A stretch of 64,000 nt of DNA from the sequence record PX423614.1; one strand, 5' to 3'. Both the position numbers and the translations under genes were made by a program. The stretch comes from a phage. The notes beneath the pieces are model-generated. The model was not told where the DNA came from. It was given only the letters and a program-made list of their open reading frames with translations, and ran no database searches. Positions 15,075 through 43,394 of this stretch are shown piece by piece. The number at the start of each line of letters is the position of its first letter. Position 1 is the first letter of the stretch.

Positions 15075-15082
15075 AGGCGAAT

Positions 15083-16832: not shown

Positions 16833-16841
16833 GGTGATATT

Positions 16842-17468
16842 GTGAGCTTGTTAAGAGATTTTCAACACTATTATTGTGGAACATGGATTGCTCAGCGATC
16901 ACCTGATGGTAAAAACCTCCCTCTATATGTGCTTGATGTTCGTCAGCAAGGTAACTTTGATATCGACGACTATTCACACGACGCTGAAATGTCTTTAGTG
17001 TTTGAGGCGGAACGCTGGACTAAAAACTCTGAAGGTCAGTTTGAACGTCAGGTTGTTAGTAATATCCCAGTGTTTGATCACAGCCTCATTCTGGAGTCTC
17101 CAGATGTAGGATACCTTCAGCATGGTAATAACATGGTGAGCTGGACCCATATCAACCCTGTTCGTCAGCGAGCTAAAGGCTTGATGGGGAATAAACTTCG
17201 TGGTGCTCCGCCTTCTCTCGGACGTTCGATTCCGGGTGATTTGGTGTACAACCTGTTTAATCCAGAGTTTGAAGGGTTGGTTACTCGTTTCATCTATATC
17301 AATCCTGTCGATGGAAAAGTTTATTACAAAGGAGCTTACGTTGGAAACGTGCTTCTTGAAGCTGGTTATGGCGACAATGGTCGTCAATCTTTAAACCTTC
17401 TGGAGAAGTTCAAGCATATTTCTTCAGACCTGTCATCATATAATGTAGAGTTGGTGGAATCATTATGA
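16842..17468 (+). CDS. hypothetical protein (208 aa), ligase cluster
   Basis: ORF track; between the two amidoligase-like paralogs. Confidence 0.5.
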   Translation: MSLLRDFQHYYCGTWIAQRSPDGKNLPLYVLDVRQQGNFDIDDYSHDAEMSLVFEAERWTKNSEGQFERQVVSNIPVFDHSLILESPDVGYLQHGNNMVSWTHINPVRQRAKGLMGNKLRGAPPSLGRSIPGDLVYNLFNPEFEGLVTRFIYINPVDGKVYYKGAYVGNVLLEAGYGDNGRQSLNLLEKFKHISSDLSSYNVELVESL

Positions 17469-18565
17469 CAACCGTAGCACAAGTTTTTGGATACCGTAAC
17501 CCTCGCTTATCTGAACCGCATCCAAGTATTGCTTTTCAGTGTGGTGTTGGTATTGAGTTAGAAGTCGAAGGTACAACTGACATTGACGCTGATATGTGGG
17601 TTTGTACTGAAGATGGCTCTCTTCGTGATGGTTGTGAATTAGTATGTGCACGACCTTACAACGGTGAAGAACTACTTCGTGCTATTAACAATCTGAGTGA
17701 AGCAGTACAGGATTCCGGAGCCGAGGGAACTTGGCGCTGCTCCACTCACGTTCATATGGATATGCGTGACGCTGATAGTAATATCCTTAAGAAAGTTATT
17801 CTTGGATGGACGTTCTATGAAAAGATGATGTTCAAATGTTCTGGATACCATCGCTATCGTAGCAACTTCTGTCCAGCTTTTGCTGTCGTTCAAGCACAAG
17901 TTATGAATGCTTCGTCAGCGTTCAACCGAGACGGGGAAGCTTTCTTCCACTCTCTTGTTAATAGCTGGGATAAATATACCTCCCTTAATCTTTTGCCTCT
18001 ATCTCAATTTGGTTCTGTTGAGTTCCGTATCTCAGAGCCGAAGTGGAAAAAGAGCCAACTTCTGAATCTGGTCAACCGCTTCTTGGTTCTCAAGAAACTG
18101 GCTGTTGAATATGCAGATTTAGACAATGAAGCTTATGTTGAGAAGTTGAATGAGCTGCGCTTCGCTCCTATGATTCAACATCTACCCCTAGACTATACTC
18201 CAAGAGACAGCGATCTCACTGAAGGGTATCGTCTTGCTCGTGATATTCTCTTCTGTCGTGAGCAATCTGTAACTTTGGTTGGTCGTGTTCGTGTGCAACA
18301 GACTGGCCCTGATGGTGAAGTCCTTATCAACTTACGTGATATGAATGACTTCTATGGTTTCTTGGGATATGTGCGCGGTAATGCCAACAGTGTCTACGAA
18401 GAGATCATGACCTACTACACCCCTCAGATTGAAAGCACTCGAATCGCAACGGTTCGTGAAATTCGTCACATATTTGCATTGATGCGTGAATCAGGTAGCA
18501 GTGATGATAACGTCACTGGTTATATTCCAGACCATCTGGAAATGCAATTAGAACGACTGCTGTAA
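17465..18565 (+). CDS. amidoligase-like protein, paralog B
   Basis: E-x-E, E, H-x-H and E-x-R motif series shared with paralog A; this pattern is typical of glutamine-synthetase-like carboxylate-amine ligases. Confidence 0.4.
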   Translation: MTTVAQVFGYRNPRLSEPHPSIAFQCGVGIELEVEGTTDIDADMWVCTEDGSLRDGCELVCARPYNGEELLRAINNLSEAVQDSGAEGTWRCSTHVHMDMRDADSNILKKVILGWTFYEKMMFKCSGYHRYRSNFCPAFAVVQAQVMNASSAFNRDGEAFFHSLVNSWDKYTSLNLLPLSQFGSVEFRISEPKWKKSQLLNLVNRFLVLKKLAVEYADLDNEAYVEKLNELRFAPMIQHLPLDYTPRDSDLTEGYRLARDILFCREQSVTLVGRVRVQQTGPDGEVLINLRDMNDFYGFLGYVRGNANSVYEEIMTYYTPQIESTRIATVREIRHIFALMRESGSSDDNVTGYIPDHLEMQLERLL

Positions 18566-18642
18566 CACAACGGGCGCTCTTATACAGGGCGCATTTAAAG
18601 GTTAATTAGATGAAAGGGTTTACCCTTCAGGTGGATTAGAAA

Positions 18643-20676
18643 ATTTGTGGTATCGTATTAGCTGGCGGCAACATGACCTCAGCAGATTTGGACATTTTCA
18701 ACCAACTTCTGTATGCTGGTGTTTTCCGTGGACAGCACTCAACTGGTGTGTTTGGTCAGCGTAAAGGTGAAAAGCAAGTCTTCTCTTATAAAGAAGCTCT
18801 TCCTTCTTATGCTTTTATGCTCCAGACAGAATATACAAATATTACCAAAGGGCTTACGAACTACGTAGTTCCTCCTTCGTGGATTGTTGGTCACAGCCGA
18901 CATGCCACTCGTGGGGCTGTCAATGCTCGAAATGCTCACCCATTTACTCACGGGGATATTACTCTGGTTCATAATGGAACCCTGTTAGATCAAGATCTCC
19001 TTCCTGACAGTAAGCGTTTCGAAGTTGATAGTGAAAACATCTGCCACTCAATTAACACCATTGGAGCAGCAGAGACTATCCAAAAACTGGATGGTGCATT
19101 CACTTTGATTTGGCATGATGCTAAAGACAACACGCTTCACATTATCCGTAATGATGAGCGTCCTTTCCACCTAGCCCGCTGTGGTTTGGATTGGTTTGGA
19201 GCTTCTGAAGAAGCTATGCTTATGTGGATTTTAGAGCGTTCTAAGTCCCATAAGAACCGTATCAATGACCACTTCGAATGTAAAGTGGGAACTGAGTATA
19301 TCTTTGATGTGTCTAACAGTCGTATGACTCTGGTTCAAGAGGTGGAGCACACGCTTCCGGTTTTTACGGTAACGAGTCGCTGGGGCGGCTATTACTCGAA
19401 CTCCTCTCTTTATCAGAACCAACAGACAAACAAATCAAGCAGCAGCACAAGCGACATTTACGGAAACAAAGACGACAAGCCCGGCGTGACAAGCGGAGAC
19501 ATTCGTCGTCGTAAAGCGATTGAAGACCAGAACAAACTGGCTGCCGATCGTGGTCTTCCTTATCGTCGTGATGGTCGTGTGGATATTATTCCTCATGAGT
19601 TCCATGCTTATAACAACACAGATCGTGGTAAGATGGTTGGTTACATCTACGATGATAAAGCTCAAGAGTATGTCGAAGGGGATGTTCACAACGTAGCCAA
19701 AGATGAATATCTTAAGGCTCTTGAAAACCCAAAGGTAGTATATCGCGGGACGATTGCTTGTATCTCCGAAGTGGACAGTATGATTCGCCTCGTACTAACT
19801 TCAGGGCTGTTTGTTGATGCTACAGATAAGGAGCCTCAAAGCACTACTGCTGATTTTGATGATGATATCCCTTTTGATGCAGAGGACTCCTTCATCACTA
19901 AGAATGGTGTAGAAGTCACTCGTAAGTTCTGGGAATCTCACTCTCATGGTGACTGTGGTGGTTGTGATAAGCACATTGACTGGAAAGATGCTCGTAAGGC
20001 TGTGTTTGCTTATCAGGCATACTGGCATCCAGAATGCTTCGAAGCGTTATCTAAAACCTCTGAAGAGGAAGAAGATGTGCCTTTGGGTGTATGTGCTATC
20101 TGTGGTGAAGTCAAGACTGATTTCGAGTTTGACAACGAAATGAGTAAACTTCGTGGTGAAGACGTTTGTTATATCTGCTCCAAAGAAATCAAAGATAAAG
20201 TAAAGAATGTTACTCTATCTGAAGGTTATATTTGGACTAAAGCAGTAGACACAACCAACCCACGTCGTCCTGAAGTAGCTGTTCGTGTTGATGAACGTAT
20301 GCTTAGCCGTATGATTGTAATGGTCAGCTCAGCAAAACGTTCAGGGGATATTACACTTGCAGATGTTCCTAATTCGTATTTGGAAAAACGTGGTGGTGAT
20401 ACTTATGCCATCTCTGTTTATGGTCCAAAGAATTCCCCAAAGGAGGTACCCGCTGAGAAAGCGGAGACATTTCCAGAAAAGTCAACCTCTCTCCGAAAAA
20501 CAGTTGTCAGTTATGATGGACAACGAACAGCTGAGTTTACAAAAGCCCTCTGGACTTCAATTGGGTTTTGTGCAGTCTGTTATAAACAAATTCCGTGGCG
20601 TGATGCAGAAACTTGCTCACTGAACAAAGAAAACAGGGTGATCTGTAATTCAGATTACTGTAAAGGTAAACACTAA
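18643..20676 (+). CDS. class-II glutamine amidotransferase-like domain fused to Cys-rich zinc-ribbon-like C-terminal region
   Basis: in-frame upstream extension encodes CGIVLAGG, matching the N-terminal nucleophile block (M)CGIVG of PurF/GlmS/AsnB; RG..STG, GHSRHATRG, NAHPF and VHNG motifs; C-terminal CGGC, CAICGE, CYICSKE, CAVCYKQ clusters; first in-frame ATG is at 18673. Confidence 0.55.
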   Translation: MCGIVLAGGNMTSADLDIFNQLLYAGVFRGQHSTGVFGQRKGEKQVFSYKEALPSYAFMLQTEYTNITKGLTNYVVPPSWIVGHSRHATRGAVNARNAHPFTHGDITLVHNGTLLDQDLLPDSKRFEVDSENICHSINTIGAAETIQKLDGAFTLIWHDAKDNTLHIIRNDERPFHLARCGLDWFGASEEAMLMWILERSKSHKNRINDHFECKVGTEYIFDVSNSRMTLVQEVEHTLPVFTVTSRWGGYYSNSSLYQNQQTNKSSSSTSDIYGNKDDKPGVTSGDIRRRKAIEDQNKLAADRGLPYRRDGRVDIIPHEFHAYNNTDRGKMVGYIYDDKAQEYVEGDVHNVAKDEYLKALENPKVVYRGTIACISEVDSMIRLVLTSGLFVDATDKEPQSTTADFDDDIPFDAEDSFITKNGVEVTRKFWESHSHGDCGGCDKHIDWKDARKAVFAYQAYWHPECFEALSKTSEEEEDVPLGVCAICGEVKTDFEFDNEMSKLRGEDVCYICSKEIKDKVKNVTLSEGYIWTKAVDTTNPRRPEVAVRVDERMLSRMIVMVSSAKRSGDITLADVPNSYLEKRGGDTYAISVYGPKNSPKEVPAEKAETFPEKSTSLRKTVVSYDGQRTAEFTKALWTSIGFCAVCYKQIPWRDAETCSLNKENRVICNSDYCKGKH

Positions 20677-20687
20677 GAGGTATAGTT

Positions 20688-20921
20688 ATGGAAGTTCGTA
20701 AACTGATGTTGGATAACGTGGTAACTACCCGCCGTATTCCGATGACAAGCACAGGATGTGATAACCTCCGAGCAATTCAGAAGTGGATGCAAGAAGGTAT
20801 TGGGAAGCTGGTTGACTCTCCAGTAGAAATCCCTTTTCCAACCGTTATCAATAACGTGTTGGCTGACTATGTTAAAATGAAGGGGATTAAAGTTGAGCCT
20901 CATGTCAAGCAAGGGAGCTAA
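20688..20921 (+). CDS. hypothetical protein
   Basis: ORF track; GAGG RBS. Confidence 0.45.
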   Translation: MEVRKLMLDNVVTTRRIPMTSTGCDNLRAIQKWMQEGIGKLVDSPVEIPFPTVINNVLADYVKMKGIKVEPHVKQGS

Positions 20922-21123
20922 GCCTCACCTGACAATGCTGGAGTATCAACAACTCCGACTTCAACAACTGGTAACGGAGCAGCGAAAGCTGTATCCGTTT
21001 GCTTTTAACTTAATCGACTCTCCAAGCGATGCCCAAGAAGACGAAATGTTCGCTGAGTATTGGGCAATCGAAGCTAAAATTCAATCCTGTCGTAACGAAA
21101 TTCTTAAACTAAAAGGTATCTAA
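20893..21123 (+). CDS. hypothetical protein
   Basis: ORF track. Confidence 0.4.
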   Translation: MSLMSSKGAKPHLTMLEYQQLRLQQLVTEQRKLYPFAFNLIDSPSDAQEDEMFAEYWAIEAKIQSCRNEILKLKGI

Positions 21124-21125
21124 AA

Positions 21126-22361
21126 ATGACTACTCGTATCCGTGTTCTTCCGTATGGCCCGTCTGATTCTGTTAACGCTCTGGTATCTGCTATCAGTGAT
21201 ACTATCCGTGATGAACGCATCAATGCTAACGTGATGGGGCTTCTTTCAGAGAATAGCCGCTGGCGTTCTCGTGAAGGTGATGTGGTTGTTAACTACGGGA
21301 ACCGTCGCTATCCTGAATCATTCTTTGGTTCTGCAACCGTCCTTAACCGTACCGCAGCCTTATATATGGCAGCGAACAAACGTCGTGCTTTCAGTGTGAT
21401 GGACCAAGCAGGTGTTAAAACTGTGGAATACACAGATGTTCAAGAGACTGCTCAGGAGTGGTCAAACACTGGTAATATTGTGTATGAGCGCCATGAGCTG
21501 ACTGGTCACTCTGGTTCGGGCATTGTTGTTGTAGAACCGGGTGATTCAATTGGTCAAGCTGAACTGTACACCAAAGGTATTCAAGGCCCACGTCGTGAAT
21601 GGCGTGTCCATGTGTTCAAAGGTGTAATCACCTATGTTCAGAAGAAGATTCGTCGCAATGGTTATCGCGAAGACCCTAACTATCGTGAAGATATTCGTAA
21701 TCACCACACTGGCTGGGTTTACTCAAGCTCCTTCACAGATGCTCCGAATGACGCCTCTCTGATCAATGCAGTGAAAGCTGTTGAATCAATGGGTCTGGAT
21801 TTCGGTGCAGTTGATATTATCACCAAAGGTCAAGAAGCGTGGGTACTGGAAGTTAATACAGCACCGGGCCTGACTGGTACAACTCTGGATACTTACCGTC
21901 ATAACATTCTTGAGTTTGTTAAAGCTCAAAACCCTCTCTATACTCCTCAGTATAAAGTGGTTTACCAGACTCCGATTGAAGATGGAGACGGTGAGTTGGT
22001 GGATGATATTGAAAGTGCTGATGATGAAAACTTTGCACTGGAAGGACAAGTAGCACAGCCGATTGATTCAGTTGATGTGGTTCCTGAAGAAATGCAACTG
22101 GAAGGTCAGATGAATACTCAAACTATTCGTAATGCACCTACTGGCTACACTTTGTCTCGTGGCTACTGGATTGCAAATATCCGTCATGTCCACAACAACC
22201 TGCAACCGAATGCAATGTCTGCCAATGTCATCCTGTTCTGTGATGGTCGTAACTTCTACCGCAGTGGTTGGAACGTTCCGGTCAATCCAGTCCAGATTCA
22301 TAACCCTCGCAAGTTAGAGTCTGTCAATGTTGAAGGTAGCGAAGTAGCAGTAACTCTGTAA
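21126..22361 (+). CDS. ATP-grasp family ligase (RimK-like)
   Basis: GSGIVVV, E-W-R-VHVF and the DFGAVDII...VLEVNTAPGL block typical of ATP-grasp enzymes such as RimK, glutathione synthetase and D-Ala-D-Ala ligase. Confidence 0.6.
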   Translation: MTTRIRVLPYGPSDSVNALVSAISDTIRDERINANVMGLLSENSRWRSREGDVVVNYGNRRYPESFFGSATVLNRTAALYMAANKRRAFSVMDQAGVKTVEYTDVQETAQEWSNTGNIVYERHELTGHSGSGIVVVEPGDSIGQAELYTKGIQGPRREWRVHVFKGVITYVQKKIRRNGYREDPNYREDIRNHHTGWVYSSSFTDAPNDASLINAVKAVESMGLDFGAVDIITKGQEAWVLEVNTAPGLTGTTLDTYRHNILEFVKAQNPLYTPQYKVVYQTPIEDGDGELVDDIESADDENFALEGQVAQPIDSVDVVPEEMQLEGQMNTQTIRNAPTGYTLSRGYWIANIRHVHNNLQPNAMSANVILFCDGRNFYRSGWNVPVNPVQIHNPRKLESVNVEGSEVAVTL

Positions 22362-22387
22362 TTAAATTAAACAAAAAGGAATTTGTA

Positions 22388-22630
22388 ATGTTGTCTATCG
22401 AAGATTTGATCAGCCGTGGAATGACCGAAGAAAAAGAGCCTCTGATTGTAGGCTCTCGTAAAGCTATCAACCAACTCTGTGAAGAGTTCGGTATCACAAA
22501 TAAGAGAATGATTGGTAATCAGTTCTCTGCAATCATCACCTTCCTCAAACGAGGTGATAAATGTTCAATGGAATGTGCTGAGCGTATCATCGCAATTGCA
22601 CAAGCAGATAAGGGAGTAACAAGTCTGTGA
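22388..22630 (+). CDS. hypothetical protein
   Basis: ORF track; AAAGGAA RBS. Confidence 0.45.
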   Translation: MLSIEDLISRGMTEEKEPLIVGSRKAINQLCEEFGITNKRMIGNQFSAIITFLKRGDKCSMECAERIIAIAQADKGVTSL

Positions 22631-22812
22631 ATAAATACACAATCATGTTTCGTACAATGTCAGCAGAAGGAAATATTCAATCTCTGGACATTCAAGCAGA
22701 TCGCTTTGAATCACTTGGAACAAGTGTTAACTTCTTCCGAGGTACAGAGCTAGTGGGTACATTCCAATCTGATGTGTTGACTGGTGTGATCAAACACTTC
22801 GAAGTAGAATAA
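22627..22812 (+). CDS. hypothetical protein
   Basis: ORF track. Confidence 0.4.
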   Translation: MNKYTIMFRTMSAEGNIQSLDIQADRFESLGTSVNFFRGTELVGTFQSDVLTGVIKHFEVE

Positions 22813-22869
22813 TTTGCTTTAGCCTCTTCGAAAGAGGAGGCTAGTTCGAATTTAACTAGAGGTTGTAAA

Positions 22870-23286
22870 ATGGTTAATAATAAACTGGATATGTTTAAAA
22901 GTCGTATCTTAGATGTAGAGTATTCCAAAAACCTCTTTGAGAAGCACAAGAAAGAGGCAAAGGAAGAGTTAGAAAGTCTTCTGAAAGATGAAGAGATTCC
23001 TCTCTTTGATCGTTGGTGCTTGTTTCTGGAACACGGTGACTTATTTCCTGTAGCTTCAAGTGTAATTAGTAGAGCTGTTACAAGTGCAGTGGAAGGTTTT
23101 TATGACTTGGAAAGATACCGAACTTATATCTTCTCTGATATTTTTGAAGAATACTGGTTTGGTGAAAAAGAGTCAATTTCTGATGAAACCAAGAAAGCCA
23201 TTAAGGGATGTTTTGAAGAATTCCCTGAAAAGCCAATCCGATCAATCATCTTCTCTGGATATTCTGGTTTCCAACATGATTGGTAA
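22870..23286 (+). CDS. hypothetical protein
   Basis: ORF track; GAGG RBS. Confidence 0.5.
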   Translation: MVNNKLDMFKSRILDVEYSKNLFEKHKKEAKEELESLLKDEEIPLFDRWCLFLEHGDLFPVASSVISRAVTSAVEGFYDLERYRTYIFSDIFEEYWFGEKESISDETKKAIKGCFEEFPEKPIRSIIFSGYSGFQHDW

Positions 23287-23292
23287 GCAGCC

Positions 23293-23490
23293 ATGAAAAA
23301 GATTCTATTTTTCCTCTCCTTATTCAGTGTGTCAGCGATCGCCGCTGATGAATGCATCTCTAAAGATTCAGGGAGAGGTCAAATCATAACTCAATGCGGC
23401 AGCCATGTAACAGTTGTCGATTCTATAACTCAAACAGTTCTCGTGTGTAACGGGACTTCTTGTACAAAAGAAATTTTAAACAAAAGGTAA
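23293..23490 (+). CDS. small secreted protein
   Basis: signal peptide MKKILFFLSLFSVSAIA. Confidence 0.45.
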   Translation: MKKILFFLSLFSVSAIAADECISKDSGRGQIITQCGSHVTVVDSITQTVLVCNGTSCTKEILNKR

Positions 23491-23494
23491 TGTA

Positions 23495-23926
23495 ATGTCT
23501 GATAAAGTATTAGTTGCAACGTATGGTTCTCTTCGTAAAGGTCAACACAACCACGCTATCAATGCTCGTGCAGGTGGTGTGTCTATTGGTGAAGGGTGGA
23601 CAGTAAACAACTGTAACCTGTATCAGTATTGCACAGCATACTTCCCAAGTGTATCTTTGGAGCATGACAGCAATGGTAAGCCTGTTCGTGTAGAAGTCTT
23701 TGAAACAACCCAAGCTGGTCTGGAAGGTCCGTATGACGGTCTGGAAGGTCATCGTGGTAATGATAACCCATACACCTTTTACAAGCGTACACTGATTCCA
23801 GTATTATTGGACAGCGGTGAAACTGTGGAAGCGTGGATTTATCACATCGACGAAGAACAAGATGTTCTGGTTGAATCTGGTGACTGGACAGCATATCTGG
23901 CAGGTGAGAAGGATGACAGTAACTGA
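23495..23926 (+). CDS. gamma-glutamyl cyclotransferase-like (AIG2/GGCT family) protein
   Basis: N-terminal YGSLRKG motif, LEGPYDGLEGH...Y.R and C-terminal AWIY match the AIG2/GGCT fold signature. Confidence 0.6.
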   Translation: MSDKVLVATYGSLRKGQHNHAINARAGGVSIGEGWTVNNCNLYQYCTAYFPSVSLEHDSNGKPVRVEVFETTQAGLEGPYDGLEGHRGNDNPYTFYKRTLIPVLLDSGETVEAWIYHIDEEQDVLVESGDWTAYLAGEKDDSN

Positions 23927-26489: not shown

Positions 26490-27962
26490 ATGATTAAGAT
26501 TCCATTGTCTGAATTGAACCTTCAAGAAGGAGAAGCCCTCAGTGTAGGGCTTGACCTGATTCGTAATTTGATCAGAGATAACGTAGTCCCTGATGGCATC
26601 TATCCTGTTATTGCAGGTGGTGCTATCCGTGATACGTTCTTCCAAAATAGAACTCCGAATGATGTTGATATCTTCCTAGTTCAAGGAGGGTTTCGTTGGA
26701 ACACTCGTCAGGAAAACAGCCCTGCTAACGTAGGTAATGCTGCACTTTTCCTTGACAACTTCTTATCTTGGACAGAAAGTAAGGGGCTTCAGGTTACATC
26801 TCGACTAATTCAGCCTGTTAACGGGACAACCTATGCTGAAGCGCTTTTCACTTTCCAAGAGATTCTGGAAATTGAGATTGATCAAGTTAAAATCCAGATG
26901 ATGATTAATCTACCTTTGGATATGGATACTTTAAGCCGTCGCTTCCCTATGATCTGTCAAGGGTTTATGACTCTTGGTAATCTGTATGTGTCAAACGAAG
27001 GTTTGTTTGCAATGTCATACACTCGTGACATTCCTGTGGTATCTAGTCGTGAAATGAAGTACGTTCACAAGAAGTGGCCTGAAGCAACTGTTGCAGTTTA
27101 TAGCAGTTCTACCGAATATATGCACCTTGCAATGGGAGCTTTCGGTGAGCCAGAAGTTCACCTGATTAGTGATTTAGTTGGACCTATGGCTGGTGTAAAT
27201 TTATATCAGAATCAGCGTCGTCATTATACCCTGAAGATGATGGAAACTATATTAAACATTCCTCAGGAAAGGGGTCGTAGTTATCTGGACGAGGAAGTTA
27301 ACCTACAGACAGAATGGTCTAGTGGATTAACCACTATAGGTGCTGAAGCAATCACGCAGCCTTGGACTCCGGGAACTAACAGACGAGATCTTCAAGCTTT
27401 TAATGAAGAAACTTCTCGAACAGTTCGAGGAGGTGTTGTAGGGTATAACGTACAACCTCATGAAAGACCTCGTGACACTTTCACTGGCAGTTTTGGTAGT
27501 GCACGCTCTTCTGGAGTGGATACTCGTACATGGCATGTCCAAGGAGGAACTGCTCGTCCTATTCCCTCTCCGTCAATGGATGATTTGCAGCGTTCTCGTC
27601 GTTCATGGGAAACAGTAAGCTCTGTTGTTCAGGGTCTACGTGCTAGAGATATTGAACGTGTAGAAGTTGGTGATTTGCCAACCCCTACAGAAGATCGAGT
27701 ATCAGCTATAGCGGCTCGTGAAGCTGCTCATATTGGTTTTGCATCATTAACTAATGACGCTAACGAAGCTCCTCGACCTGTTGGTCGTCGTAATGGTCTA
27801 GCTCACTCTGACACTGCACTTGGTGCAGAACTACGAGCAGCAGCTCGTGAGCTATCTGGTGAGCTTCACAACAACCTAGCAGGTGTTACACTATCTCGTG
27901 AAACAGCTCGTAATATGATTAATAATTTGGCATCATCTGTACAAGGAAACAGAAACTCATGA
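26490..27962 (+). CDS. polymerase-beta superfamily nucleotidyltransferase with disordered Arg/Ser/Thr-rich C-terminal half
   Basis: VIAGGAIRD...NDVDIF matches the GG...DxD head-domain signature of CCA-adding/poly(A) polymerase-type nucleotidyltransferases. Confidence 0.45.
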   Translation: MIKIPLSELNLQEGEALSVGLDLIRNLIRDNVVPDGIYPVIAGGAIRDTFFQNRTPNDVDIFLVQGGFRWNTRQENSPANVGNAALFLDNFLSWTESKGLQVTSRLIQPVNGTTYAEALFTFQEILEIEIDQVKIQMMINLPLDMDTLSRRFPMICQGFMTLGNLYVSNEGLFAMSYTRDIPVVSSREMKYVHKKWPEATVAVYSSSTEYMHLAMGAFGEPEVHLISDLVGPMAGVNLYQNQRRHYTLKMMETILNIPQERGRSYLDEEVNLQTEWSSGLTTIGAEAITQPWTPGTNRRDLQAFNEETSRTVRGGVVGYNVQPHERPRDTFTGSFGSARSSGVDTRTWHVQGGTARPIPSPSMDDLQRSRRSWETVSSVVQGLRARDIERVEVGDLPTPTEDRVSAIAAREAAHIGFASLTNDANEAPRPVGRRNGLAHSDTALGAELRAAARELSGELHNNLAGVTLSRETARNMINNLASSVQGNRNS

Positions 27963-28492
27963 GTCTTTTAGGTTCTCAAGAATTACACAGCGTTATCGAT
28001 AATGGCTTTTTAGATGCGGAGCATAAATATGTTAACGCTGCTAGCGTGGATATCCGTATTGGTGATACTATCCTTGTTGAAGAACAGGCTGATGGTATTG
28101 TTGACATTGATGCTAAAGAAAACCTCAAGTGGAAAGAAGTGAAAATCCCTGAAGATGGCATTGTCATTACTCCGGGACAGTTCTTCTTAGCTCACTCTAT
28201 GGAAGAATTTAACCTTCCAGACAATATTTCAAGTCTGTTTGTACTCCGCTCCTCAATGGCTCGTTGTGGTTTAAACCACTTACATGCTGGGTGGGCTGAT
28301 GCAGGGTTTAACAGCAGTAAGCTAACCTTTGAGTTCCATAACGTTACCCACAATCACAGCTTACGAGTTCGTGCTGGGATGCGTGTTGGTCAAATGGTTA
28401 TGTTTGAACACTCTCACGCTGGTGATGATTCCTATGCAGTGAAGGGTCGTTATAATAACTCTGATGGGGTTGTTGCTTCTAAAGGCGTATAA
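27959..28492 (+). CDS. dcd: dCTP deaminase (Dcd)/dUTPase superfamily protein
   Basis: aligns with E. coli Dcd: ASVDIRIG, ITPGQFFLAHS, RSSMARCGL, AGWADAGF, catalytic-Glu block TFEF, GMRVGQMV. Confidence 0.65.
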   Translation: MSLLGSQELHSVIDNGFLDAEHKYVNAASVDIRIGDTILVEEQADGIVDIDAKENLKWKEVKIPEDGIVITPGQFFLAHSMEEFNLPDNISSLFVLRSSMARCGLNHLHAGWADAGFNSSKLTFEFHNVTHNHSLRVRAGMRVGQMVMFEHSHAGDDSYAVKGRYNNSDGVVASKGV

Positions 28493-28708
28493 TTGATGGA
28501 GTTTGGAACAATGAAAAGACGTTGGGTAGTCCGCGTTCACTGGAGCAGTGGTACAGAATCAATGGGTATCAGAAACACTCGTCAAGAAGCTCGCGCTCAT
28601 AAGAAGTTCTTATTAAGCTGCGAAAGTACTATTGACAAGATCACTATCCACAAAGCTCAGGACTTTAAATCAGGTCGTTTCTATATCAGCGGAAAGGTAC
28701 ATTACTAA
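28493..28708 (+). CDS. small protein, KVHY-tail family copy 1
   Basis: W.VRV.W...TRQEAR...I.IHK...KVHY pattern shared by four ORFs. Confidence 0.5.
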   Translation: MMEFGTMKRRWVVRVHWSSGTESMGIRNTRQEARAHKKFLLSCESTIDKITIHKAQDFKSGRFYISGKVHY

Positions 28709-28914
28709 TGGCTAAATTATGGGCAGTTCGTGTTAAATGGGCTAACAAAGATCTTGGTGGTGATTGTCTTAAACTGTTTGACACACGACAAGAAGCTCGT
28801 CTTGCTAAGAAAGCTACAAAAGCTTTAGGTCTCGCTGAAAAAGTAGAGATTCATCGTTGGTTTCAAAATGATAATAACAGTGCAGGATCCTTGACTAGCA
28901 AGGTTCATTACTAG
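28708..28914 (+). CDS. small protein, KVHY-tail family copy 2
   Basis: LWAVRVKW...TRQEARLAKKA...SKVHY. Confidence 0.5.
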   Translation: MAKLWAVRVKWANKDLGGDCLKLFDTRQEARLAKKATKALGLAEKVEIHRWFQNDNNSAGSLTSKVHY

Positions 28915-28966
28915 TTGGTAGTAGATATGATAACTCTCAAATGTATATACAGTATAAGAATATTGT

Positions 28967-29314
28967 ATGAAACAGGAGAGAGTTATGTTAGATTTGAGTA
29001 AAGTGGCCCCGCCATCTGAAGAGATTAGCAAAGCTAAAGTTATGCAGCAGTTCTATCATCGTGATATGCTTGGTCGTTATATCAAGAATCGTGATGTTGT
29101 TGCATGGTCTATTGGAAATCAAGGTTATCTTCTCAAAGTGTTGCAAGTTACTGGCTCAACAGCCAAGCGAGTCAAAGTCTATGACCCTGAAATGGGGCGT
29201 TCTAAATCAGTAGACCCTCAGAATTGCATTGTTATCACACAACAGGTCATGGATAACATTGCTCGTAATGTAGCTAATTCAACTAACTTAGAAGGGGATG
29301 CACCTAATGCATAA
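28967..29314 (+). CDS. hypothetical protein
   Basis: ORF track; AAATGTATATA motif about 25 bp upstream. Confidence 0.45.
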   Translation: MKQERVMLDLSKVAPPSEEISKAKVMQQFYHRDMLGRYIKNRDVVAWSIGNQGYLLKVLQVTGSTAKRVKVYDPEMGRSKSVDPQNCIVITQQVMDNIARNVANSTNLEGDAPNA

Positions 29315-29873
29315 TAATGTCTTCGACTTACCTGAACTAACACGAGTGGGTTCTAGCAACCCATTCTCTACTACTGACTCTTCTATCTCTCGTCTTGAGG
29401 GAATGAATAAACTGATTAGCGGTAACAGCTTAGAACACATCTTGTGTGGTGTGCAAGCTAACCTTGAACTTCTACACATCAAAGCAAAGAACTACCACTG
29501 GAACGTCTCTGGAGCTGGTTTCCAAGGTGTTCATGGTATGTTCGATGAGTTAGAAGATTATGCTCGTGAGGCAGGCGACCGAATAGCAGAGCGTATGCGC
29601 TTTCACTGTGTTAAAGTGGATGCTACTGCTAGTAACTATTTAGGTCATGCTTGGTTCCGAGAAGGTAACGCTGATCTCGACATGGACGGTATGCTTTCCG
29701 ACATGTGCATGACTCTGATGTGTATCATTGAAAAGATGGACGAGTTTGATTCAGACTTGTGCACTTATCCAGTTGACCAGAGTATGCTTCAAGAAATTAA
29801 TGAAGGTCTTGGCAAGTTCTGCTACTTCGTCAAGAGCAACATGTCCCACTCCAGTGGTGACGTGTCTTACTAA
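29298..29873 (+). CDS. Dps-like ferritin-superfamily protein
   Basis: HWNVSGAGFQGVHGMFDELEDYAREAGDRIAER matches the Dps signature H-W-N-V-x-G...H...F.E...E; alternative internal start at 29403 possible. Confidence 0.55.
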   Translation: MHLMHNNVFDLPELTRVGSSNPFSTTDSSISRLEGMNKLISGNSLEHILCGVQANLELLHIKAKNYHWNVSGAGFQGVHGMFDELEDYAREAGDRIAERMRFHCVKVDATASNYLGHAWFREGNADLDMDGMLSDMCMTLMCIIEKMDEFDSDLCTYPVDQSMLQEINEGLGKFCYFVKSNMSHSSGDVSY

Positions 29874-29930
29874 TCAAACCTCCGCCCTGTCTCTTTGTTT
29901 AAGAGGTGGGGCGAACTTCTTTATAAGGAT

Positions 29931-30116
29931 ATGAGTATGTTTTCAGCAATCGTATGGTCTGTATGGGCAATTCTTGTTGGTGGTATCGTTTATCTGGCTC
30001 AGAAGCAGATGCTTAAAGAGAATCCGAATGATGCTAAACCTATTAAACATGGCAGCATTGCTCTGGTAATTTTCTCTGTTGTTATTCCTTTCCTTCTCCA
30101 CCTGTTGACTGCATAA
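29931..30116 (+). CDS. small membrane protein (two helices), tandem paralog 1
   Basis: AAGGA RBS; hydrophobic helices; paralog of the following interrupted gene. Confidence 0.5.
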   Translation: MSMFSAIVWSVWAILVGGIVYLAQKQMLKENPNDAKPIKHGSIALVIFSVVIPFLLHLLTA

Positions 30117-30125
30117 GGGTTTGAT

Positions 30126-30315
30126 ATGATTTCACTGATTGTGTGGGCCGTGTGGTCGTTAATAGTTGGTACTGTTATATATATATAAAGCTCGAAATTT
30201 AGCAATTAAAGAAAACCCAGCAGAAGAGGATGTTAAAGCTATCAAGCTAGGTAGTGTTGTTCTGGTACATTTTGCTATAACACTACCTCTTGTTATTATT
30301 CTTTGTATGCTATAA
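30126..30315 (+). pseudogene. frameshifted tandem paralog of 29931-30116 (interrupted at an (AT)5 tract)
   Basis: frame 0 stops after 20 codons within ATATATATATA (30177-30187); a +1 shift restores a C-terminal half similar to the upstream paralog. Confidence 0.4.
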
Positions 30316-30505
30316 GGAATCCAAAGAGTGAAACTAAACCTACCTGAAGAATTACAAGCACATGCCATTATCGTTAGTGGCTGTGTGATGGGTCTTGGTC
30401 AGACAAAGAAGATTGCTCATGACTTAGCAAAAGGTCAGTATAAATCTTTTATTGTTGTTCCTGCTACCCAGCGTCATATCAACCTGTTTATTAACAAGGA
30501 ATAGA

Positions 30506-30781
30506 ATGAGTAAAGTAATTAAGTTTTATAGTAATTCATGTGCTCCGTGTGCAGCTATGGCTCCTGTGTTTAAGAAGGTTGTGGCTGACTATAGTGTAGA
30601 AGTTGAAGAAGTAAATATCTCTGAAGGTGATGGTCGAGAGCGAGCCGTTGAATATGGTGTTCGCAGTATCCCAGCCTTTGTCGTCCCTGATAAGAACAGT
30701 GGTGCTCATTATAGTTTATCAGGTATGCAAACTGAATCTAATCTCCGTGCATTTTTAGACACGGCTCTGAAAGGTATTTAA
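30506..30781 (+). CDS. thioredoxin/glutaredoxin-like protein (CxxC active site)
   Basis: KFYSNSCAPCAAMAP CxxC motif in thioredoxin-fold position; downstream IPAFVV cis-Pro-like motif. Confidence 0.5.
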   Translation: MSKVIKFYSNSCAPCAAMAPVFKKVVADYSVEVEEVNISEGDGRERAVEYGVRSIPAFVVPDKNSGAHYSLSGMQTESNLRAFLDTALKGI

Positions 30782-30782
30782 T

Positions 30783-30998
30783 ATGGAAAAGAAACCTTGG
30801 ATTACTTTTTGGGTAGTTAAGTGGTTTAATTTTGATAGCACAATCCCTAGCCTCTCCTCGTACACAACACGGAGAGAGGCTCGCCGCTTTAAGCGAGCTT
30901 TAAAAATTGCTAACACTGGTGCTTCTAAGATCACAATCCAGAAAGGGATTGAAACAGAAAGTGGAAGCAATCTGATTTATAAAAAGATTTACTATTAA
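30783..30998 (+). CDS. small protein, KVHY-tail family copy 3
   Basis: WVVKW...TRREARRFKRALK...ITIQK...KKIYY. Confidence 0.5.
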   Translation: MEKKPWITFWVVKWFNFDSTIPSLSSYTTRREARRFKRALKIANTGASKITIQKGIETESGSNLIYKKIYY

Positions 30999-31013
30999 AG
31001 AATAGGTGCTATT

Positions 31014-31226
31014 ATGACTCAAGGAAAAGATGTGTATTTTTGGGCTGTTGTTTCTGAATATCCAGAGATGGAGTATCCAAGGGTTAACACGTGTGCTACT
31101 CGTAAAACTGCACGATGCACTAAACGTGCCCTCAAGAAGATGGGTCGTGATTCGAAGATTTCAATCCACCGTGCATATATGACAGCAGCGGGTTTCATTG
31201 TAGTAACACCAAAAGTTTATTATTAA
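31014..31226 (+). CDS. small protein, KVHY-tail family copy 4
   Basis: FWAVV...TRKTARCTKRALK...ISIHR...PKVYY. Confidence 0.5.
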   Translation: MTQGKDVYFWAVVSEYPEMEYPRVNTCATRKTARCTKRALKKMGRDSKISIHRAYMTAAGFIVVTPKVYY

Positions 31227-31240
31227 GGAAGAGTTCAAGG

Positions 31241-31891
31241 ATGAATGAACAATTACAAGCAACACTAATTGAAGCAATGGGAAATGACAAAACCGTTGTT
31301 AACGCAGCTCGGGTTTCTTTTGGAGTCACTCGTGAAGGAGAGTTAAATGAACGTGATGAACGCCTTATCAAATTCCTTGCCAGAGAAAAACACTGTACAC
31401 CATTCCGTCATCCGACAATTAGCTTCCGATGCAAAGCGCCAATCGCAATTGCGAGGCAGCTGGGCAAGCATCAAGTTGGATTCTCGTGGAACGAAATGTC
31501 CCGGCGGTATAAAGATGGAGCAGTTGAACTCTTCATCCCTAAAGAGATTTTTGAAAGACCTTCGGACCTCCATGCAGGTGCGGGGAATCTCCTCACCACA
31601 GGAGCACAAAACTCTGCACTAGTCCTGATTAATCGGGCATATGAAACAGCTCTTGAGTCATATGATGAGTTGATTAAGTTCATCGCTCCAGAGCAAGCTC
31701 GATTCGTACTACCTCAGGGAATGATCACTGAGTGGGTGTGGACAGGCTCTTTATATGGTTGGTCAGAGTTGTGTCGTCAGCGACTGTCCGACCATGCTCA
31801 GTATGAAGTACGAGTGTTCGCATCAACGGTCGATGAAGAGCTTCGTAAACTTTTCCCAATCTCATGGGACGCACTACGTGAAGCCCACTAA
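31241..31891 (+). CDS. thyX: ThyX-like flavin-dependent thymidylate synthase homolog with divergent RHR motif
   Basis: KHQVGFSWNEMSRRY resembles the ThyX signature RHR-x-x-S-xxxx-S-x-RY but RHR is replaced by KHQ. Confidence 0.5.
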   Translation: MNEQLQATLIEAMGNDKTVVNAARVSFGVTREGELNERDERLIKFLAREKHCTPFRHPTISFRCKAPIAIARQLGKHQVGFSWNEMSRRYKDGAVELFIPKEIFERPSDLHAGAGNLLTTGAQNSALVLINRAYETALESYDELIKFIAPEQARFVLPQGMITEWVWTGSLYGWSELCRQRLSDHAQYEVRVFASTVDEELRKLFPISWDALREAH

Positions 31892-32063: not shown

Positions 32064-32543
32064 ATGAAAGCTATTTTTGAAGGAAGAGAATATGATGTTC
32101 CTGAGTGGACCAAATACATAGCCCGCGATTGTGATAATCAGGTTTGGGCATATGGAAATACACGACCTATGTTTAATGAAAACACTGGCAGTTGGTCTAA
32201 TATGTCAAAACTACCGGGATATATTCGGTTGCTTGGTTCTTCTAGGCGTCCTGTAGGTTTCGCTGCTGACTCTCTTGTTGAGGTCGGTGTTGAAAAAGGG
32301 GTAGACAAGCCAGAAACAATTTGGGTATTGTCTTCGAGTACTCCAATCAAAGGGAGTCGTGGGATTTCCTTCTACGTTGAGCCTGTCGCTTACTTCAAAA
32401 AGAAGCCAACCACCAACTCTCTGATGTTAAAGAACATTCCTTATTCCCAAGTTGCTACTCTGTTAGATAATGGAACAGTGCTTGTTGAGAATAATGGGAC
32501 AAATCAAATCTTTTATGATTTAGAAGAAAGGGTTTTGGAATGA
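32064..32543 (+). CDS. hypothetical protein
   Basis: ORF track. Confidence 0.5.
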   Translation: MKAIFEGREYDVPEWTKYIARDCDNQVWAYGNTRPMFNENTGSWSNMSKLPGYIRLLGSSRRPVGFAADSLVEVGVEKGVDKPETIWVLSSSTPIKGSRGISFYVEPVAYFKKKPTTNSLMLKNIPYSQVATLLDNGTVLVENNGTNQIFYDLEERVLE

Positions 32544-32860
32544 TCAACAATAATACATTTAGGACTGGTAACGGAAATGAAATCAGTCCTGCTGAAGTGA
32601 TTAAACGACACAGAACACAGATGCTTATCCACTCCTATTTGTATTATTGGTTGGATGACCCAATCTGGTCTGACGATAAGTGGCAACAAGTGGCTGATGA
32701 CTTAACCACCTTGCAAGAGATGTATCCTGAGCCTATTGGATTCTTCGATTCAGAGTTCAATGGATGGAATGGCTCCACTGGTATGCATCTTCCTCATGAC
32801 GAGCGTATAGCTTGTATGGCTACTGAAGTATACCGTTTACATAAGGACAAATCAATCTGA
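32540..32860 (+). CDS. hypothetical protein
   Basis: ORF track; overlapping start/stop. Confidence 0.5.
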   Translation: MINNNTFRTGNGNEISPAEVIKRHRTQMLIHSYLYYWLDDPIWSDDKWQQVADDLTTLQEMYPEPIGFFDSEFNGWNGSTGMHLPHDERIACMATEVYRLHKDKSI

Positions 32861-33038: not shown

Positions 33039-33776
33039 ATGAGTCGTAGAGAATCTCGGAAAGCATCACGGAGAGAATTACGTCGTGAAGCTCTCGTCAC
33101 CAAGAAAGGAAAGCGGGAATTTGAAGAAGTAGTTCTTGCTAAGCCGGTAGTACCTCAGAACCAATTCCAGAGTGAGCTGCTTGATGCAATTAAAACCAAA
33201 CAGGTTGTATTCACAGATGCTCCTGCTGGTTGTGGTAAGACCTTCGTAATTACTTCTACAGTAATTGATGCTCTGAAGAGTGGGAAGATTGAGAAGATTA
33301 TCCTAAGCCGGCCTGCTGTTGGTATGGGTAATAGTCTTGGATTACTTCCCGGTGGGCTTCGTGAGAAGTTTGAACCATACCTAATGCCAATCGTTGATGT
33401 TATTACTCAGCGCTACGGTAAAGGTTTCTACGAATGTCAAGTAGGTAATGGTAATATTGAGTTCGTACCTCTGGAATATCTACGTGGTCGCTCGTTCAAC
33501 GATGCTGTCGTGATTGTTGATGAGTTCCAGAACACTACTCCTGATGAAGCATATTCAATCATGACACGTCTTGGTGAAACCTCTCAGATGTTCTGCATGG
33601 GGGACACTAACCAGCACGACATGCGTGGTGAGAGCGGTCTTGATTGGGCTACTGATTTCATCTACCGTCACCAGTTATTTGAGTTTGCCGCTCTAGTAGA
33701 TGGCGAATCAGATGATATTGTTCGTTCAGGTTTCTGTAAAGCTATTGTTAAAGCAATGGAATCTGAAAAATCATAA
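33039..33776 (+). CDS. phoH: PhoH-like ATPase
   Basis: Walker A DAPAGCGKTF, Walker B VIVDEFQN and overall PhoH-family pattern. Confidence 0.7.
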   Translation: MSRRESRKASRRELRREALVTKKGKREFEEVVLAKPVVPQNQFQSELLDAIKTKQVVFTDAPAGCGKTFVITSTVIDALKSGKIEKIILSRPAVGMGNSLGLLPGGLREKFEPYLMPIVDVITQRYGKGFYECQVGNGNIEFVPLEYLRGRSFNDAVVIVDEFQNTTPDEAYSIMTRLGETSQMFCMGDTNQHDMRGESGLDWATDFIYRHQLFEFAALVDGESDDIVRSGFCKAIVKAMESEKS

Positions 33777-42147: not shown

Positions 42148-42798
42148 ATGAAGAAGAAGACAACACCCACACGCTATCGTATTCATGGCATTCCTATTAA
42201 ATATTATCCAACCTTCGATGAATTTTATCGAGAGAACTGGAAAGTTGTGCATAAGTATTTTATGTATGACATTAAAGATTATCACGAGGCAGAGGATGTT
42301 GCTCAGGAAGTGTTACTGAACGCTTGGCGTTTTGTATTTGCAAAGCAAGAAGAACTTCTGCTCACTGATGAAAAAGATATTGAGCACATGACTTATCGTG
42401 TCAAGAATATCATCTGGTCGATTCGTTCTAATCGTCAGACAGTTGGAGACCGACGTATCTACTCTATTCCAGAAGCTGATATGTTTAGACCTCCTGAGAT
42501 GAATTCATGGGAAAGTCCTTTAGAGATTGCGATGGATAAGCATGATTCTACTGGAGACCCGTTCTTGGAATCTAGAATCTTTTTCTTCTTCCAAGACCTG
42601 AGTGACATTATGGAAAACCGTAAGATGGCAAGCATGTTCTCAATGCTCTTTCTCGGCATCCCACATGATCACATCCAGCAAGAGTTGGGAATTTCACACG
42701 GAACCTTCTATCGTCGTTATTCAGAGAATCGTGATCTGTATGAAGCGGTAGTAGAGAAGCACTTTGATAAAGAAGATCTTCAAGGGATGATTCAATAA
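42148..42798 (+). CDS. phage-encoded ECF-like sigma factor
   Basis: region-2-like [15 protein letters not shown] and C-terminal region-4-like helix-turn-helix [20 protein letters not shown]. Confidence 0.55.
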
Positions 42799-43394
42799 TG
42801 AGTAAACCATTAGTAGTAATTCTGAATGGACCACCGGGTTGTGGTAAAGATACAATCGCTAATTCTTGGTTAGAGAAAACACTTGGTAACACCGAGTTTA
42901 GGCCGCATGTAAAGGCTTTTAAGGAGCCTATGTATCGAGTGGCTGCTGCTGCATTAGGTCTACCTCTTTATGAGTTCATGGAGCTGTACAACGACCGTGA
43001 GTGGAAAGAACATAGCCGTCCTGAATGGGACGGTAAGTCAGTTCGAGACTTGATGATTGCAACTAGTGAGAACTATCTGAAGCCCATGTTTGGTGAGACC
43101 TGCATGGGTAAACTTGCTGTTAGCAGTATTCAACAACGCACCCCAACACAGAATGATGTTATTGTATTCTCTGACGGTGGGTTTAAAGCAGAAGTTGAAG
43201 AACTGGAAAAACATTTCCATGTTCGAGTAGTTCAGATTCTCCGAGATGGATGCTCCTTTGAAGGGGACTCCCGTTCTTATATCGAAGGAATAAACCTACC
43301 AACCTACCTCCTCTTTAATGACCGTTCTGTAGAAGAGGCAGTGGAGGATTTGGAGTGGATTATTGAGGGGACACGGAGAGGTCTCTATGTCTGA
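42798..43394 (+). CDS. P-loop nucleotide kinase (dNMP kinase-like)
   Basis: Walker A LNGPPGCGKDT at N-terminus; size and pattern like phage dNMP kinases. Confidence 0.45.
   Translation: MSKPLVVILNGPPGCGKDTIANSWLEKTLGNTEFRPHVKAFKEPMYRVAAAALGLPLYEFMELYNDREWKEHSRPEWDGKSVRDLMIATSENYLKPMFGETCMGKLAVSSIQQRTPTQNDVIVFSDGGFKAEVEELEKHFHVRVVQILRDGCSFEGDSRSYIEGINLPTYLLFNDRSVEEAVEDLEWIIEGTRRGLYV

Follow-up and report, generated by a model that had tools for sequence, protein, structure and literature searches.

The stretch of phage DNA analysed here (record PX423614.1; 64,000 nucleotides, referred to below as the window, the numbering of which is used throughout) carries genes for a dCTP deaminase of the Dcd family, a small thioredoxin-fold protein, a thymidylate synthase of the ThyX family and a deoxynucleoside monophosphate (dNMP) kinase, which most likely make up a canonical dCTP-to-dTTP supply module of a kind that is ordinary for phages. 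These genes lie within the replication block of a coliphage that belongs to the Gordonclarkvirinae (Kuravirus-like). Its ThyX has an unusual signature motif and represents a variant subclass that, judging by its sequence, most likely works like canonical ThyX. The original prediction for this region had offered two readings of the gene set, namely a plain boost of the dTTP supply or an altered pyrimidine chemistry, which would be indicated by the changed motif and possibly linked to a cluster of ligase genes; the gene identities, the scores above equivalog cut-offs and the signs of selection described below make the former the best-supported explanation.

Nucleotide comparison of the 3.9-kb thyX/dcd region revealed matches to 99 phage records, including Escherichia phages Bas87, Bas88, vB_EcoP-101114UKE3, IME267 and ECBP2, which show 92–95% identity over most of the region. 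Since the nucleotide identity to Bas87, Bas88 and ECBP2 is about 94%, the window phage is assigned to the Gordonclarkvirinae (Kuravirus/phiEco32-like) coliphages and is classed as a podophage. The same genes are already annotated in the records of Bas87, Bas88 and ECBP2; the syntenic order in Bas87 is primase/helicase, polymerase exonuclease subunit, nucleotidyltransferase (NTase), dCTP deaminase, several hypothetical proteins, “DNA binding protein”, thioredoxin domain, thymidylate synthase, “DNA ligase” (Nlig-Ia domain only), PhoH, DNA polymerase, sigma factor, dNMP kinase and exonuclease. Profile searches and translation found all the elements named in the original prediction at the places that it had given for them (Table 1).

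Searches with curated models clearly indicated the relationship of the predicted ThyX-like protein to the ThyX family: it was matched by PF02511 (E = 1.4e-42, 146.1 bits, cut-off 24.8) and passed the NCBI thyX equivalog TIGR02170 (123.4 bits, cut-off 87.9). AlphaFold2 modelling of the monomer yielded a full-length structure with a predicted local distance difference test (pLDDT) score of 94.6, and the top 50 Foldseek matches of the model were all T. maritima ThyX, with TM-scores of 0.78–0.83 (0.82 for the superposition). The active site of ThyX is built from three subunits of a homotetramer, with flavin adenine dinucleotide (FAD) at the three-subunit interface. The motif region of the phage gene translates to KHQVGFSWNEMSRRY; in HMMER and MAFFT alignments, K76-H77-Q78-VGFSWNEM-S87-R88-R89-Y90 of the phage protein corresponds to RHRIA-SYNELSGRY of T. 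maritima ThyX, so that K and Q replace R78 and R80, respectively, H79 and S....S.RY are retained, and the phage motif is longer by one residue. Translation and alignment thus bear out the earlier observation of KHQ in place of RHR with the downstream residues retained. Instead of the classical RHR-X7-S signature, the phage enzyme has KHQ-X8-SRRY, in which both Arg residues are replaced, and His and Ser are retained.

In other respects, the protein resembles canonical ThyX (T. maritima TM0449, Mycobacterium tuberculosis Rv2754c, PBCV-1 A674R and D29 gp48), with which it has in common the Pfam/TIGR family, the fold, the length and the residues S30, H53, H59, Q75, H79, N85, E86, S88, R90, Y91, R147 and R174 (T. 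maritima numbering); T. maritima Q75, E86, S88, R90, Y91, R147, R174 and H53 are Q73, E85, S87, R89, Y90, R154, R181 and H51 of the window protein. Among the other dUMP-binding and catalytic residues checked, the sole exception is E58, a variable position. The differences from canonical ThyX consist in K-H-Q with X8 rather than R-H-R with X7, and in Arg rather than Gly, Gln or Ala at position 89.

The substitutions fall in a functionally important place, so the original prediction was right to flag the motif. In the structures of M. tuberculosis and Helicobacter pylori ThyX, RHR forms hydrogen bonds with the AMP phosphate, the ribityl chain and the FMN phosphate of FAD, and the first Arg of RHR also touches the isoalloxazine ring and dUMP (PMC6514825); the description of RHR as “phosphate-binding” holds for the FAD phosphates, but is too narrow in view of the ribityl, flavin and dUMP contacts. 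For T. maritima ThyX, R78, R80, S88 and R90 are listed as residues that form direct hydrogen bonds with dUMP and are conserved family-wide (PMC3498832).

Database searches indicated that the changed motif is shared by a wide range of proteins. KHQ-X8-SRRY was found in 120 of the 120 closest database homologs, down to 52% identity; these homologs, which include proteins of Salmonella phage SeKF_80, Yersinia phage PYps23T and Escherichia phage Ecp_YSF, carry ARQLxKHQxGFSWNExSRRYKDG, and the 15-residue motif is essentially invariant while the homologs are only 52% identical overall. The ratio of non-synonymous to synonymous substitution rates (dN/dS) of thyX, estimated against Bas87, is 0.08, a value that indicates purifying selection. 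Because of the invariance among the homologs and this low ratio, the motif change is not attributed to chance or to a sequencing oddity. An exhaustive HMMER search of 1.84 billion cluster representatives returned 366 representatives at E below 1e-30; RHR was present in none of the best 150 of these 366 (39–60% identity), which read [KR]-[H/S/Y]-[Q/T/K/E/V...], followed by 7–8 residues and S-R-R-Y. Isolates with ThyX of this subclass comprise Kuravirus, 7-11-like and GJ1-like phages (MLP1, vB_EamM-Y2), roseophage SIO1, cobaviruses and phages of Alteromonas, Aeromonas, Vibrio, Rheinheimera and Thermus. Altogether, more than a thousand phage genomes from many lineages encode a ThyX of this motif class, and a related RHT...SRRY form is encoded on a 559-kb contig with giant-virus-like gene content. 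On the basis of these alignments, [KR]-H-x...S-R-R-Y is regarded as the signature that defines a very large ThyX subfamily, most members of which are viral.

As a separate observation, thyX is more diverged from its Bas87 counterpart (84% nucleotide identity, synonymous divergence dS 0.77) than dcd (94%) and the NTase gene (98%). In Bas87, an HNH homing endonuclease gene lies directly upstream of thyX (21934–22584 of the 40.6-kb Bas87 locus), and the window is without that gene. Taken together, this suggests local mosaicism or homing-associated exchange.

Covariation was analysed with 584 ThyX sequences placed on one profile and read at T. maritima positions; the set comprised database hits, sequences from 80 viral contigs (subclass alignment) and 74 (canonical alignment), D29 gp48 and T. 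maritima ThyX. Where position 80 is Arg, position 89 is Gln, Ala, Gly or Thr in 38 of 40 sequences, and where position 80 is not Arg, position 89 is Arg in about 490 of about 500, the sample being phylogenetically non-independent and in effect consisting of two clades. S30 (or T), H53, H59, Q75 (or E), H79, N85, E86, S88, R90, Y91, R147 and R174 show almost no variation in either class. Such a pattern at positions 80 and 89 is what the compensated relocation of one guanidinium group would produce. In the PBCV-1 ThyX complex, the side chain at position 89 can fill the dUMP-phosphate pocket (PMC3498832), and for this reason it is plausible, by analogy, that the role of R80 has passed to R88 in the phage enzyme. 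The motif shift is therefore read as probably a compensated rearrangement of the FAD/dUMP-phosphate pocket, and not as a change of substrate or product.

The relatives P0121 and P0133 contain HNH-containing inteins inside the motif, at KHQxGF^SWNE, with the flanks GF/CLTGD...VVHN/SWNE (slashes mark the junctions). Inteins typically sit in indispensable sites. Their position exactly within the motif, together with the low dN/dS, the near invariance of the 15 residues among homologs of 52% identity and the confident full-length structure model, speaks against the view that the RHR substitutions have abolished FAD or dUMP binding and that the ThyX homolog is thus a decayed or non-catalytic relic. 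That view could appeal to the replacement of both Arg of the classical signature, to the description of the ThyX motif as necessary for the activity of M. tuberculosis ThyX (PMC2386288) and to that of R78 and R80 as conserved dUMP contacts (PMC3498832), but it appears extremely unlikely.

In a scan of 185,579 species genomes, few cellular ThyX copies showed the viral KHQ pattern, and these were mostly on contigs of metagenome-assembled genomes. The scan also found a coherent group of Firmicutes (Fusibacter, Acidaminobacteraceae and some Bacillaceae), the ThyX of which reads ARQWWKYLVG...WNESSRRYV; these proteins have neither Arg 80 nor His 79, K-Y-[LI] replaces RHR, SRRY is kept and the insert before WNESSRRY is longer (loci L209–L238, e.g., 5968–6660 of L214). 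In a complete Fusibacter chromosome, thyX has ackA and a HIGH-family NTase gene on one flank and rsmD, recG and fakA on the opposite one; plsX and yceD are close by. This neighbourhood is conserved in seven genomes, which is consistent with the SRRY-form thyX being a housekeeping gene in Fusibacter.

The other members of the proposed module were likewise recognised by family profiles. The deaminase was matched by PF22769 (E = 1.5e-34) and phrog_1663 (E = 7.5e-59) and passed the dCTP_deam equivalog TIGR02274 (106.6 bits, cut-off 92.8). Its Ser and Arg (RSSMARCG), Asp (ADAGF) and catalytic Glu (KLTFEFHN) align with those of the solved M. tuberculosis and Bacillus halodurans enzymes, in agreement with the earlier description of a Dcd-family protein with an intact catalytic Glu block; the same four residue types are aligned in Escherichia coli Dcd and in the DCD-DUT proteins of M. 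tuberculosis and M. jannaschii. Among PDB matches, the phage protein is nearer in sequence to the enzymes of B. halodurans (E = 1e-14) and M. tuberculosis (E = 3e-13) than to E. coli Dcd (E = 7e-07), and its best PDB matches are labelled “deoxycytidine triphosphate deaminase” only. The dN/dS of dcd against Bas87 is 0.042, and that of the thioredoxin gene is 0.044. The best start of the latter open reading frame (ORF) is the ATG at 30506; the encoded protein contains a CAPC active site and a cis-Pro (SIPAF) and was matched by PF00085 (E = 1.1e-12, 48.2 bits, cut-off 23.5) and phrog_22, as anticipated for the CxxC thioredoxin-like protein of the original prediction. It scored 46.9 bits with the TrxA equivalog model, below the cut-off of 96.8, and consequently the 91-residue protein is assigned a thioredoxin fold and is not considered a TrxA ortholog. 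For the dNMP kinase, annotated as such in Bas87, scans with the curated models of Pfam and NCBIfam gave no match; the P-loop that had been pointed out earlier was confirmed, and, together with the phrog_139 family profile, it corresponds to what characterises a T4 gp1-like kinase.

If the activities and the direction of flux follow family membership, Dcd would deaminate dCTP to dUTP, or straight to dUMP if it is bifunctional, and host Dut, or Dcd itself, would provide dUMP. ThyX with bound FAD, NADPH and methylene-tetrahydrofolate would then methylate dUMP to dTMP and, since ThyX makes no dihydrofolate, this step would be independent of host ThyA or DHFR; the phage dNMP kinase and host Ndk would take dTMP to dTTP. 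The small thioredoxin would most likely serve the host ribonucleotide reductase as an electron donor. Overall, the pyrimidine deoxynucleotide pool would shift from C towards T, which would fit the G+C content of the window (about 42%); that of E. coli is about 51% (PMC10733785).

Several points weigh against this explanation. R78 and R80 are listed as conserved dUMP contacts and, therefore, their replacement is not obviously neutral. A literature search found no experimentally tested enzyme of the SRRY subclass; the studied ThyX proteins that were checked (T. maritima, Thermus 6j61, M. tuberculosis, PBCV-1, D29 gp48 and Dictyostelium) all belong to the RHR class. In addition, Gordonclarkvirinae are reported to withstand type I, II and III restriction systems to a remarkable degree, and neither a modification pathway nor an inhibitor is known for them (PMC11990801); as several of the corresponding sites are present in the window in near-expected numbers (see below), some unexplained DNA protection exists in this group. 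D29 gp48 and Dictyostelium ThyX, the latter of which rescues E. coli thyA, were considered as proxies for the subclass and rejected; both are canonical RHR enzymes and, therefore, uninformative on the SRRY class.

The resistance of the group also speaks for the idea that the variant ThyX makes a modified pyrimidine nucleotide, e.g., 5-hydroxymethyl-dUMP, instead of or besides dTMP, which would be incorporated via the dNMP kinase and the polymerase. 5-Hydroxymethyl-dUMP would be formed when water captures the exocyclic-methylene intermediate; ThyX chemistry does pass through an exocyclic methylene, which is nucleophile-trappable in principle (PMC8989533). The phage has its own dNMP kinase, and two Arg of the signature motif are replaced. 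Moreover, the numbers of EcoRI (12), EcoRV (17), EcoKI (6) and EcoP1 (AGACC; 101) sites in the window are near expectation, and site avoidance, therefore, does not explain resistance to those systems.

Hexamer palindromes rich in G+C are depleted in the window (observed/expected 0.20–0.45), and those rich in A/T are not (0.87–0.95); CCWGG, the Dcm/EcoRII site, is absent (about 73 copies expected), as it is from the 40.6-kb Bas87 locus (about 47 expected), GATC is present at about half of expectation, and no copies of the PstI, SacI, SalI, NcoI, SphI, SmaI, SacII, EagI, NarI and ApaI sites were found. The skew could be taken as a sign of protected thymines, but phage T7 has the same pattern of palindrome avoidance and, for this reason, the skew was discarded as evidence. 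To our knowledge, no base modification of T7 DNA has been described.

T4 gp42 is a dCMP hydroxymethylase, and SPO1 and hypermodified-thymidine phages have dUMP hydroxymethyltransferases. These ThyA-family enzymes constitute a precedent for a thymidylate-synthase homolog diverted to a modified base in company with a phage dNMP kinase (PMC8989533), but their fold is unrelated to that of ThyX, and in ThyA-type systems the active-site changes accompany modification genes and pool-clearing enzymes, neither of which was found among the window ORFs scanned. Pfam and PHROGs scans of these ORFs revealed no methyltransferase, 5-hydroxymethyluracil kinase, glycosyltransferase or other known base-modifying enzyme; likewise, none of the families of a thymidine hypermodification or hydroxymethyluracil pathway (dUMP hydroxymethylase, 5-hydroxymethyldeoxyuridine DNA kinase and downstream transferases) was found in the scanned set. 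A literature search found no paper with restriction digests or nucleoside analysis of Kuravirus DNA.

The ligase cluster mentioned in the original prediction spans 13857–23926, upstream of the replication genes, and comprises amidoligase, glutamine amidotransferase, ATP-grasp and gamma-glutamyl cyclotransferase genes. The families represented are the phiEco32-type COOH-NH2 ligase (PF14395), Amidoligase_2 (PF12224), class-II glutamine amidotransferase (GATase_6), a RimK-like ATP-grasp protein, gamma-glutamyl cyclotransferase (GGACT) and DUF7020. Co-occurrence was assessed by querying 80 IMG/VR contigs (824 kb) containing subclass ThyX with all window proteins encoded between 13.8 and 44.2 kb. 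Homologs of the primase-helicase, the exonuclease and the family-A polymerase were found in about 30 of the 80 contigs, those of PhoH in 7 contigs and those of the dNMP kinase in 2 contigs, and no homolog of Dcd, the NTase, the thioredoxin, the Dps-like protein or any protein of the ligase cluster was found in any of the 80. Because the cluster proteins are absent from all these unrelated viral contigs, the suggested link between the changed motif and the ligase cluster is not supported, and the motif is understood, from gene content, as a property of a ThyX lineage travelling with replication modules and not as an adaptation to the Kuravirus ligase cluster.

The production of a modified pyrimidine by ThyX is thus confronted with the occurrence of the same motif class in more than a thousand phage genomes and on giant-virus-like contigs and of a related form in a syntenic position in Fusibacter, with the retention of uracil recognition (R174), phosphate binding (S88, R90 and R147), the lid Tyr91 and His53, with the lack of recognised base-modifying enzymes in the window ORFs scanned and of ligase-cluster co-occurrence in the 80 contigs, and with an equal G+C-rich palindrome skew in T7; we regard it as quite unlikely. 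The broader proposal that ThyX of Gordonclarkvirinae yields a C5-modified dUMP or another non-canonical pyrimidine and, with Dcd, the dNMP kinase and perhaps the NTase, provides a covalently modified genome, which would explain the restriction resistance, also seems quite improbable. The reading of the motif as a sign of altered pyrimidine chemistry is not supported, given its class-wide character, the covariation with Arg 89 and the conservation of the other dUMP-binding and catalytic residues; such chemistry retains a small probability in view of the unexplained restriction resistance.

A further suggestion, made in the BASEL paper from the presence of the dCTP deaminase and the adjacent NTase, is that Gordonclarkvirinae may have uracil-DNA (PMC11990801); in this case, uracil would replace thymine as in phage PBS1, with Dcd supplying dUTP. 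The likeness to the PBS1/PBS2 pathway would lie in a phage dCTP deaminase that raises dUTP (a speculation; PMC11990801), and the Dcd of the window is indeed intact and under purifying selection. Unlike in PBS1/PBS2, however, the same conserved locus contains a selected ThyX with an intact dUMP site; uracil-DNA is hard to reconcile with an enzyme that would remove dUMP and make dTMP. Neither a dTMPase nor a Ugi-like inhibitor of uracil-DNA glycosylase was recognised among the scanned window ORFs.

The properties of the NTase are of little help to this suggestion as well. Its gene overlaps dcd, the start codon of which shares ATGA with the NTase stop codon, and the gene of the putative NTase is thus regarded as translationally coupled to dcd, although the NTase is not shown to be part of the dTTP route. 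The N-terminal part contains the motif GGAIRD...DVDIF, and the C-terminal half is a long, low-complexity, Ser/Arg/Gly-rich region predicted to be disordered. Apart from the family profile given in Table 1, there was a weak match to phrog_1614, limited to residues 32–71; Pfam, NCBIfam and PDB sequence searches gave no match, only 22 close homologs were found, all near-identical and Kuravirus-like, and the AlphaFold2 model (pLDDT 34) was unusable. In its GGAIRD..DVD motif, the NTase resembles the head domains of CCA-adding and poly(A) enzymes, which are RNA-specific, and not a DNA-modifying enzyme. With these points on both sides, the replacement of thymine by uracil is judged very unlikely, and the supply of dTTP is preferred.

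Table 1. Features of the thyX/dcd region and its surroundings in the window
Feature	Position	Strand	Basis of assignment
Nucleotidyltransferase, putative (490 aa)	26490..27962	+	phrog_12715 E = 1.8e-165
dCTP deaminase, Dcd family (177 aa)	27959..28492	+	PF22769, TIGR02274, phrog_1663
Paralogous small ORFs, phrog_4939	28493-28708, 28708-28914, 30783-30998, 31014-31226		
Dps/ferritin-like protein, between dcd and trx	29298..29873	+	PF00210 E = 7.3e-08; phrog_3636 E = 9.8e-53
Small thioredoxin-fold protein (91 aa)	30506..30781	+	PF00085, phrog_22
ThyX (216 aa), [KR]Hx-X7/8-SRRY subclass	31241..31891	+	PF02511, TIGR02170
ThyX motif region	31466..31510	+	Translation, alignment to T. maritima ThyX
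PhoH-like ATPase	33039..33776	+	PF02562 E = 7.3e-56; phrog_170 E = 1.4e-81
Deoxynucleoside monophosphate kinase (198 aa)	42798..43394	+	phrog_139 E = 1.4e-40; Walker A GPPGCGKD

Among the remaining genes, PhoH, the proximity of which had been correctly pointed out, is a neighbour with no demonstrated role in the pathway. The Dps/ferritin-like protein also has weak Dps matches in NCBIfam. Several GenBank relatives have “integrase” among the feature names under the match, and others list “DNA binding protein”; if the former label refers to the Dps/ferritin-like gene, it looks like a misannotation. Four paralogous small ORFs (65–71 aa, 28–38% identical) are interspersed among dcd, trx and thyX, and their products share W.V...TR.EAR..K and the C-terminus K[VI][HY]Y. 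A stand-alone protein of 106 aa encoded at 32540–32860 comprises nothing but the N-terminal, NAD+-binding Ia domain known from NAD-dependent DNA ligases (PF22745, E = 1e-33); relatives have it annotated as “DNA ligase”, though the catalytic domains are missing.

The finding is essentially ordinary and mainly a clarification, since many GenBank records already carry annotations for the entire module. What it brings into view is a very large, mainly viral branch of ThyX without the textbook RHR, which has [KR]-H-x plus Arg at position 89. One evolutionary survey dropped ThyX sequences with more than two dissimilar residues relative to RHRX7S (PMC2826268); the SRRY branch, with its different motif spacing and the replacement of both Arg, may therefore be under-represented in that survey. 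For the restriction-resistant Gordonclarkvirinae, a conserved and selected ThyX beside Dcd argues against the published speculation on uracil-DNA, and a modified pyrimidine, if true, would explain the resistance to type I, II and III systems. Characterisation of a member of the SRRY branch would reveal to what extent the “essential” motif is in fact required, which matters for the design of ThyX inhibitors and for annotation rules.

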